Shown here: positions 38,656 through 38,973 of the stretch, one piece after another
Position numbering within the stretch: position 1 is the first letter of the stretch
How the letters are laid out: every line of letters begins with the position of its first letter
From: Lineus longissimus
Taxonomy: Eukaryota
Assembly (NCBI RefSeq): GCF_910592395.1
Contig: NC_088309.1
Span: 22,769,923-22,833,922, forward strand
Direction: 5' to 3'
DNA length: 64,000 nt
The notes under the pieces: generated by a model
Told to the model about the DNA's origin: nothing
What the model saw: only the letters and a program-made list of their open reading frames with translations
Databases searched by the model: none
Program-made: the position numbers and the translations under genes

Positions 38656-38973
38656 AAAACTGAAGAATAGAGTTGCTGCCCAGACTGCCCGTGACCGGAA
38701 AAAGGCCAAGATGTCTGAATTAGAAGAAGTGGTTGCAGAGCTAGAGGAAGAAAACAAAAAGCTGGCAGAAGAGAATGCCAAACTTTTGAGACGAACAGGA
38801 GCCCTTACAACAGAAAACATGACATTACGAGATCGGCTTGGGCAACAGCCCTTGGTTAAGAAAGAGCACACACCCCGCGAGTCTGCTGTACTCAATGTTT
38901 CTCTGCCGCAGGAACAGGTGTTTGCTCTTTCTCAACTAATGGCACATTGCAGGGCAATTCTACTGACGCTGAG
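38656..38973 (+). CDS. XBP1: XBP1 exon 2: bZIP basic region and leucine zipper, with the IRE1 unconventional splice region near its 3' end.
   Basis: Acceptor ttattttgcag. The peptide RKLKNRVAAQTARDRKKAKMSELEEVVAELEEENKKLAEENAKLLRRTGALTTENMTLRDRLG is highly similar to the XBP1 bZIP of vertebrates and invertebrates. Donor gtgagttc at 38974. Confidence 0.9.
38886..38905 (+). other. XBP1: Predicted IRE1-dependent unconventional 20-nt intron of XBP1 mRNA (ctgtactcaatgtttctctg).
   Basis: Hairpin 1 is stem GAGU/ACUC with the 7-nt loop CUG|CUGU. Hairpin 2 is a 7-bp stem UGUUUCU/AGGAACA with the 7-nt loop CUG|CCGC. Both loops fit the CNG|CNGN rule. Removing 20 nt (20 mod 3 = 2) fuses the bZIP frame to ...ESAAGTGVCSFSTNGTLQGNSTDAE-SDILLGLLEEISANTD..., which resembles the XBP1s sequence ESAAGAG...SDILLGILDNL. 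Confidence 0.75.

Follow-up and report, generated by a model that had tools for sequence, protein, structure and literature searches.

Does the XBP1 gene in this DNA give rise to an mRNA that IRE1 could splice, and does a predicted unconventional intron of only 20 nt set the locus apart from other XBP1 genes? The XBP1 intron measures 23 nt in C. elegans and Drosophila and 26 nt in mammals (PMC5588925). The first-pass annotation of the window, that is, of the whole 64-kb stretch of DNA analysed here, had proposed on the basis of two closely spaced stem-loops that the locus may be a compact variant of the IRE1 substrate.

The XBP1 gene model comprises three coding exons (Table 1); elsewhere in the window, a major-vault-protein exon lies on the minus strand (32869-33537), and its homologues, nearly all of them unnamed fragments, carried no taxonomic signal. 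In a tblastn search with human XBP1, the part corresponding to exon 1 aligned at 38168-38356. The bZIP basic region and its leucine zipper, which extend to about 38785, lie in exon 2, as do the IRE1 substrate structure and the first part of an HR2-like segment; the exon 3 region shows 67-90% identity to downstream ORFs in related transcripts. Both conventional junctions, 38355^38656 and 38973^39211 (a caret marks a junction or cut throughout), are confirmed by intron-less transcripts of relatives, with the junction of exons 1 and 2 present in L001, L002 and L008 (described below). Translation of the unspliced mRNA yields an XBP1u of 228 aa with a TGA stop at 39377-39379, while deletion of 20 nt yields an XBP1s of 402 aa that ends in WEESFGELFPCLL. 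The rebuilt products reproduce the XBP1u stop at 39379 and the move into the long exon 3 frame that the first-pass annotation had described.

Table 1. Features of the XBP1 locus. Positions are those of the window; a caret marks a splice junction or a predicted cut.
Feature	Positions	Strand	Details
Palindromic CRE/ATF-type site, putative	37972-37979	+	TGACGTCA; promoter region; read from sequence
ERSE, CCAAT-N9-CCACG, putative	37993-38011	+	CCAATGCTCAAACACCACG; about 145 nt upstream of ATG
XBP1 coding exon 1	38156-38355	+	ATG 38156; donor AG^GTAAAA; encodes ...RKRRRLTHLSPEERMLR
XBP1 coding exon 2	38656-38973	+	acceptor TTTTGCAG^A; donor GAG^GTGAGT
Central stem S1, 5' strand (exon-exon pairing)	38850-38874	+	pairs with 38917-38942 in minimum-energy fold of 38850-38945
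ES1 zipper exon bases, predicted	38875-38912	+	38875-38879 pair with 38907-38909 and 38911-38912
5' splice-site hairpin (S2)	38879-38893	+	stem GAGU/ACUC (38879-38882 with 38890-38893); loop CUG^CUGU (38883-38889); predicted cut 38885^38886
Predicted IRE1-excised intron	38886-38905	+	CUGUACUCAAUGUUUCUCUG (= CTGTACTCAATGTTTCTCTG); 20 nt; without GU-AG ends
3' splice-site hairpin (S3)	38896-38916	+	stem UGUUUCU/AGGAACA (38896-38902 with 38910-38916); loop CUG^CCGC (38903-38909); predicted cut 38905^38906
Central stem S1, 3' strand	38917-38942	+	minimum-energy fold of 38850-38945
HR2-like hydrophobic segment, XBP1u residues 155-180	38918-39232	+	VFALSQLMAHCRAILLTLSLTYCLVY; interrupted by conventional intron 38974-39210
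XBP1 coding exon 3	39211-39921	+	XBP1s frame: C-terminal transactivation-type region, SDILLGLLEE...WEESFGELFPCLL; stop 39919-39921
XBP1u-frame tail and stop	39329-39379	+	HKWWGRHQKNWNPSMN; resembles human XBP1u ribosome-arrest peptide

The XBP1 identity given to the gene in the first-pass annotation is borne out by its bZIP domain, by the naming of its homologues and by its C-terminal motifs. Pfam places bZIP_1 (1.2e-11), bZIP_2 and bZIP_Maf at residues 52-122 of the protein, with bZIP_1 alone at 63-110, and the bZIP region RKLKNRVAAQTARDRKKAKMSELE shares 65% identity over 71 aa with the human RKLKNRVAAQTARDRKKARMSELE. The best named homologues are X-box-binding protein 1, with mollusc and annelid XBP1 aligning over the full length at 32-37% identity, and XBP1s contains the motifs SDILLG, NELIKFDHVY (NELIxFDHxY) and WEESFGELFP (WEExFxELFP). 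A PDB search with full-length XBP1u as the query returned generic bZIP structures only. Judged by its sequence, the locus is an intact XBP1 orthologue.

Shortly downstream of the bZIP domain and within the same exon, positions 38879-38916 (GAGTCTGCTGTACTCAATGTTTCTCTGCCGCAGGAACA) contain the two stem-loops reported earlier. Both were confirmed base for base, as was the fit of their 7-nt loops to the rule CNG^CNGN, in which the scissile bond follows the third loop base, a G. The stem of the 5' hairpin has 4 bp and that of the 3' hairpin 7 bp, including one U.G pair, and the linker between them consists of 2 nt (AA, 38894-38895). It is because of this linker and the short stems that the intron measures only 20 nt. 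The predicted cuts after G38885, in codon 144, and after G38905 lie 20 nt apart, and as 20 mod 3 = 2, excision would bring about the frame switch proposed in the first-pass annotation, fusing the bZIP frame to a C-terminal frame of 258 aa. Across the predicted junction XBP1s reads ...PRESAAGTGVCSFSTNGTLQGNSTDAESDILLGLLEEISANTD..., i.e. ...PRESAAGTGVC...DAESDILLGLLEEISANTD.... A conventional micro-intron was ruled out by the lack of GT-AG ends in the 20 nt, which fits spliceosome-independent excision. Hairpins with a CNGCNGN loop and a stem of at least 4 bp number three per strand of the 64 kb (128 kb for both strands), and the XBP1 pair is the only one on either strand in which two such hairpins lie 14-60 nt apart; the average over 200 first-order Markov simulations was 0.005 such pairs per window. 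The structure, together with the rule of the family, predicts a 20-nt IRE1 excision.

Folding of 38850-38945 produced a bifurcated stem-loop that includes the two hairpins of the first-pass annotation. For this 96-nt region the minimum free energy is −36.0 kcal/mol, compared with −22.2 ± 3.3 kcal/mol for shuffled sequences (approximately dinucleotide-preserving; z about −4.2); a 66-nt fold is unremarkable by itself (z = −0.87). Pair probabilities in the 96-nt fold are 0.79-0.82 for hairpin 1 (S2) and 0.70-0.87 for hairpin 2 (S3). The minimum-energy fold places an extra C1-G6 pair in each loop, and the same three-stem architecture with the loops forced open is 1.4 kcal/mol dearer. When the RNA was spliced computationally, its fold (−33.1 kcal/mol) retained S1 and gained five G-C pairs, the ES1 pairing, which closes a 7-nt loop holding the junction G38885^C38906. 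A bifurcated stem-loop and an 'RNA zipper', with ES1 atop S1, have been described for metazoan XBP1 by Peschek et al. 2015 (PMC4687415). The Rfam model RF04247 ('bZIP non canonical Hac1/Xbp1 intron') aligns over its whole length with 38862-38929, with a score of 36.7 bits (E 2.2e-4) against a curated gathering score of 41 bits; its alignment places both 7-nt loops in the model loops and S1 in the outer helix. At orthologous sites, the same model scores 43.3 bits in L001, 41.5 in L010, 39.4 in L008, 37.9 in L002 and 47.7 in amphioxus. Other Rfam matches nearby (SNORD20, mir-280 and RAGATH-32, E 3.6-6.2) were taken as chance. Together, fold and family model predict that a three-stem bifurcated stem-loop, in which S1 bears S2 and S3, forms in the XBP1 mRNA.

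For comparison at close range, five related sequences were used: the transcripts L008 and L009 from SRR3581131 and SRR3581107 (91% nucleotide identity to the window), the transcript L001 from SRR22024976 (84%), the JGI genomic contig L010 (84-88%) and the marine metatranscriptome contig L002 (76%). Runs neighbouring those of L008 and L009 in the SRR35811xx series belong to Lineus sanguineus, L. ruber and L. lacteus (PMC8472881, PMC9415933, PMC12732450). Judged by these run numbers, the window probably comes from a lineid heteronemertean, and the five relatives are referred to here as nemertean. The XBP1u and XBP1s frames are both open in the relatives, and the intron length is 20 nt in all five (CUGUACUCAACGUUCCUCUG; the 5' end in L002 is CAG). 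Across the five nemertean sequences, conservation of the coding region is highest at 38876-38965, with 88-90% invariant columns as against 75-80% in the bZIP basic region and 68% in the rest. The window differs from the other nemerteans by two C-to-U changes inside the 20-nt intron, and its U.G pair at 38900/38912 in hairpin 2 is C-G in the relatives. On the exon side, L001 has G-C in place of the S1 pair A38868-U38923, a compensatory change on both sides, and the ES1 base C38876 is U in the relatives, where U.G pairing is still possible.

Beyond the nemerteans, minimum-energy folds of more distant orthologues often miss the twin hairpins, so the support across phyla rests on covariance-model alignments and pair counts. 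In nine sequences from four phyla, the four loop-proximal pairs of hairpin 1 are standard throughout and three of the four alternate between GC and AU; 81% of its cells are paired, compared with 25-54% in slid controls, and its covariation score was reached by 0 of 500 shuffles. For hairpin 2, 89% of the cells are paired in eight sequences, as against 43-55% with the partner slid, and its covariation is weak, since most of its sequence is conserved. In the loops, the bases C, G, C and G do not vary.

A search for the twin loops in other genomes, by the Rfam model combined with a stem check, placed the intron length in a wider context. A 20-nt intron is predicted for four molluscs (Gigantopelta aegis, Saccostrea echinata, Tegillarca granosa and Lymnaea stagnalis) and a 26-nt intron for the cephalochordate Branchiostoma lanceolatum. 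In the annelid Paralvinella palmiformis the predicted intron is perhaps 17 nt long, the 3' stem having only 3 bp and a CAG repeat permitting a 3' cut shifted by 3 nt. Nemertean and mollusc XBP1 share, besides the 20 nt, a 3' hairpin of the type (U/C)GUUCCU-CUGCCGC-AGGAACA, whereas the stem of the 5' hairpin varies between the phyla with its pairing kept. As the 3' hairpin is nearly identical in nemerteans and molluscs, the 20-nt arrangement appears to be homologous and lineage-wide. With human, fly and worm XBP1, the locus has in common the position of the intron shortly after the bZIP domain, a pair of hairpins whose 7-nt loops are cut after G3, the exon-exon stem S1, the predicted ES1 zipper, a length of 2 modulo 3 and the switch from XBP1u to XBP1s. 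It differs from them in an intron that is 3 or 6 nt shorter, in a linker of only 2 nt and in its loops, which are CUGCUGU and CUGCCGC rather than the C(C/U)GCAGC of metazoan XBP1. Introns of 20 nt removed by IRE1 are standard in filamentous fungi, where hacA/HAC1 of Aspergillus, Trichoderma and Verticillium also combines CNG^CNGN loops with a frame switch in a bZIP transcription factor of the unfolded protein response (PMC6627864; PMC8071499). The fungal proteins show only distant similarity outside the bZIP domain, however, and their translational controls differ (5'UTR truncation, uORFs), with no XBP1u-type HR2 and arrest peptide reported. A full-text search of a searchable literature library found 20-nt IRE1 introns reported for fungi only, and no statement of the length of a mollusc XBP1 intron. 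The covariance-model survey of Hooks and Griffiths-Jones in 2011 reportedly listed 20, 23 and 26 nt for Metazoa. The label of a compact variant thus holds against the textbook lengths of 23 and 26 nt, but not as a peculiarity of this locus, given 20 nt in five of five nemertean relatives and in four molluscs; the length is common to these animals and to filamentous fungi and is therefore a lineage trait rather than a local oddity.

Two features of the XBP1u frame, both of them also known from metazoan XBP1, fit the vertebrate mechanism by which the unspliced mRNA is delivered. Among 19-residue stretches of XBP1u, the HR2-like segment is the most hydrophobic (Kyte-Doolittle 1.62). It ends 47 residues before the penultimate Met, a spacing that matches the human protein, in which about 50 residues separate HR2 from the stall site downstream (PMC11077094). 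When the isolated tail (WWGRHQKNWNPSMN) was searched against the PDB, it aligned solely with nascent human XBP1u on stalled ribosomes (6r5q and others); owing to the shortness of the peptide, the E-values of 0.2-1 are weak. Saccostrea, Gigantopelta, Tegillarca and the nemertean relatives have this tail as well, and the mollusc and nemertean versions follow the pattern WWG(R/P)(H/Q)Q..WNPSMN. The tail resembles an arrest peptide, and a role in pausing is putative. A promoter ERSE is likewise shared with metazoan XBP1. The CCAAT-N9-CCACG element is the single match on both strands of the 64 kb searched and lies about 35 nt upstream of the point where the L001 alignment begins. The ERSE consensus and its role in the induction of XBP1 by ATF6 are said to go back to Yoshida et al. 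(1998, 2001).

Taken together, we consider it very probable that the window contains the XBP1 gene of a spiralian invertebrate, most probably a lineid nemertean, and that its mRNA carries a standard IRE1 substrate with a 20-nt intron and a switch from XBP1u to XBP1s. Based on the established pathway (PMC5588925), we propose the following sequence of events, in which (i) unstressed cells would translate XBP1u, whose HR2-like segment and WWGRHQKNWNPSMN tail may pause the ribosome and bring the mRNA to the ER membrane and IRE1; (ii) ER stress would activate IRE1, and cuts after G38885 and G38905 would release the 20 nt; (iii) the exon ends would zipper by five extra G-C pairs after the cuts; (iv) an RtcB-type ligase would join the exons, so that XBP1u (228 aa) is replaced by XBP1s (402 aa). 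The upstream ERSE would let ATF6 and XBP1s raise the transcription of XBP1.

The exact position of the 3' cut is the first point at which another reading can be formulated, as the 3' site (CUG^CCG^CAGG) contains two overlapping CNGCNGN strings, starting at 38903 and 38906. A cut after G38908 (CCG^CAGG) would release 23 nt (38886-38908), as in fly and worm, and create the junction GCGAGTCTG^CAGGAACAGG and an XBP1s shorter by one alanine (RESAGTGVC). This cut would lead into the same reading frame; the frame cannot separate the two lengths because both are 2 modulo 3. The structure, however, does distinguish them: the string at 38906-38912 has a stem length of 0, whereas that at 38903-38909 is closed by the 7-bp stem with the pair probabilities given above and is the one that the Rfam alignment sets in a loop. 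In addition, Gigantopelta and Lymnaea keep the 20-nt spacing without possessing the second string, and we regard a 23-nt intron as very unlikely. It is also conceivable that the hairpins are a by-product of dual-frame coding constraint, the long frame being reached by alternative conventional splicing, frameshifting or reinitiation without any IRE1 cut. The region is dual-coding, which by itself would raise nucleotide conservation, and hairpin 2 shows little covariation. When JGI contigs were searched for GCGAGTCTG-N(0-26)-CCGCAGGAACAGGTGTT, the unspliced L002 contig was the only match, and neither XBP1s nor XBP1u nor the downstream ORF of the window had an exact counterpart in a collection of 15 billion proteins. 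Against such a by-product stands the pairing of hairpin 1, which survives GC-to-AU exchanges in four phyla although the encoded peptide differs, as do the invariant loop bases and the matches to the structure-aware RF04247. Conventional splicing is further opposed by the lack of GT-AG ends, and a naturally spliced XBP1s mRNA of another marine invertebrate in a Tara metatranscriptome (L006) has a junction of the predicted type, GAGUCUG^CAGCAGGAAC. We judge this reading to be slightly less probable still.

The least probable of the alternatives, to which we give hardly any weight, is that the copy in the window is a pseudogene or a silent paralogue and that the genome has its functional XBP1 at another locus. 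The analysis covered a single 64-kb window, and no transcript of the exact species turned up in the look-ups. Both reading frames are nevertheless intact, the conventional splice sites fit the consensus and are placed where expressed relatives of 76-91% identity have their junctions, and an ERSE is present in the promoter. Within the 20-nt intron, the window departs from its relatives at only two positions, one of which gives U.G for C-G in hairpin 2. As its introns are present, the gene is not a retrocopy. An intact gene with a 20-nt IRE1 intron hence remains our preferred reading.

Extending this reading to the lineage, we hypothesise that 20 nt is the clade-wide state of spiralian XBP1 (Nemertea and Mollusca) within a series of lengths that differ by multiples of 3 nt, in which an annelid may have 17 nt, the sampled spiralians have 20 nt, ecdysozoan models 23 nt and chordates, amphioxus included, 26 nt. 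We further suppose that a co-translational targeting module made up of the bifurcated stem-loop, HR2 and an arrest peptide of the form WGRHQ..W.P.MN already existed in the last common ancestor of protostomes and deuterostomes. We put the chances of this combined hypothesis at about even. If it is true, the 20-nt form with its 2-nt linker would represent a near-minimal substrate occurring in nature, one that limits the ways in which an IRE1 oligomer can engage both sites.

In summary, the locus is an ordinary representative of the IRE1-XBP1 family from a phylum in which the element has apparently not been described, and the understanding of the IRE1-XBP1 mechanism is unchanged by it. The precise XBP1u/XBP1s gene model defines the junction to look for in XBP1 splicing, GCGAGUCUG^CCGCAGGAACAGG, in which GCGAGTCTG^CCGCAGGAACAGG corresponds to the 20-nt deletion; this junction could serve as a read-out of ER stress in nemerteans, which are used in research on regeneration and toxins. 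An XBP1u arrest peptide of the vertebrate style is recognisable in nemerteans and molluscs. The predicted introns of these two phyla, consistently 20 nt long, suggest that the textbook statement of '23 or 26 nt' under-describes the diversity of animal XBP1.

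The C-terminal tail encoded by the unspliced XBP1u frame of Lineus longissimus closely resembles the human ribosome-arrest peptide (QWGRHQPSWKPLMN). The nemertean tail reads WWGRHQKNWNPSMN; comparable tails occur in the oyster Saccostrea (WWGRHQQNWNPSMN) and in the molluscs Gigantopelta and Tegillarca, where WWGPQQ(Q/K)SWNPSMN is followed by one extra residue. Judged from the sequences of these nemertean and molluscan tails, the vertebrate XBP1u pausing module seems to be conserved well outside vertebrates. The tails compared are listed below together with other genes and elements of the window.

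XBP1u tails compared, and additional features of the window
Feature	Location	Strand	Description
XBP1u tail, Lineus longissimus	window 39329-39379		
XBP1u tail, Saccostrea (L004)	1787-1951		
XBP1u tail, XBP1 locus L003	3834-3947		
XBP1u tail, XBP1 locus L011	2019-2132		
XBP1u tail, nemertean relatives L001, L002, L008 and L010			
TNFAIP8 (TIPE) single-exon ORF	window 22776-23345	+	189 aa; full-length domain, Pfam E 1.7e-73
Major vault protein gene, large exon	window 32869-33537	-	homologues named 'major vault protein'
Non-LTR (LINE-type) retrotransposon ORF, intact	window 51985-55401	-	1138 aa; AP-endonuclease domain, reverse transcriptase, zf-RVT

The length of the IRE1-type intron differs among the XBP1 loci compared. 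In the amphioxus Branchiostoma lanceolatum (L013 1913-1958) it measures 26 nt (CAGCAUUCAGACUACGUGCACCUCUG) and is nearly identical in sequence to the human intron; the 26-nt form would therefore be older than the vertebrates. The site of the annelid Paralvinella palmiformis (L005 1779-1815, GCA_025642065.1) reads UGAGU-CAG|CAGU-ACUCA AC CCU-CAG|CAGC-AGG, with a 3' stem of only 3 bp and a predicted intron of just 17 nt. A CAGCAGCAG repeat leaves two positions open to the 3' cut, which would give 17 or 20 nt. An intron of the predicted 17 nt would be shorter than the 19 nt of Candida albicans, given as the minimum IRE1 intron length (PMC6222058).

A Tara Oceans metatranscriptome contig (L006, Ga0193208_10034273) represents a fully spliced XBP1s mRNA of another marine invertebrate, with a 433-aa ORF and the junction GAGTCTG|CAGCAGGAAC near nt 600, encoding the peptide LESAAGTTD. 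This contig is a natural instance of spliced XBP1s within environmental data.

Within the XBP1 promoter of the window, a perfect palindromic CRE/ATF site (TGACGTCA, 37972-37979) lies 14 nt upstream of the ER stress response element. The DNA upstream of Saccostrea XBP1 (L004 569-697) contains a perfect inverted repeat, long and rich in AT, that on both strands matches several unrelated miRNA families below threshold. This element is probably not a miRNA but a MITE-like or palindromic repeat. Elsewhere in the window, Pfam domains of the Vault and MVP shoulder/repeat types are present in homologues of the vault exon, and the strongest GC-skew excursion (-0.22 to -0.29 at 52-56 kb) coincides with the retrotransposon ORF.

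Among the homologues of the window's XBP1, many NCBI entries, including that of Gigantopelta, bear the label 'LOW QUALITY PROTEIN'. We would guess that annotation pipelines model a frameshift in place of the unconventional intron and so arrive at the XBP1s frame; should this be true, XBP1 is systematically mis-described by automated annotation.
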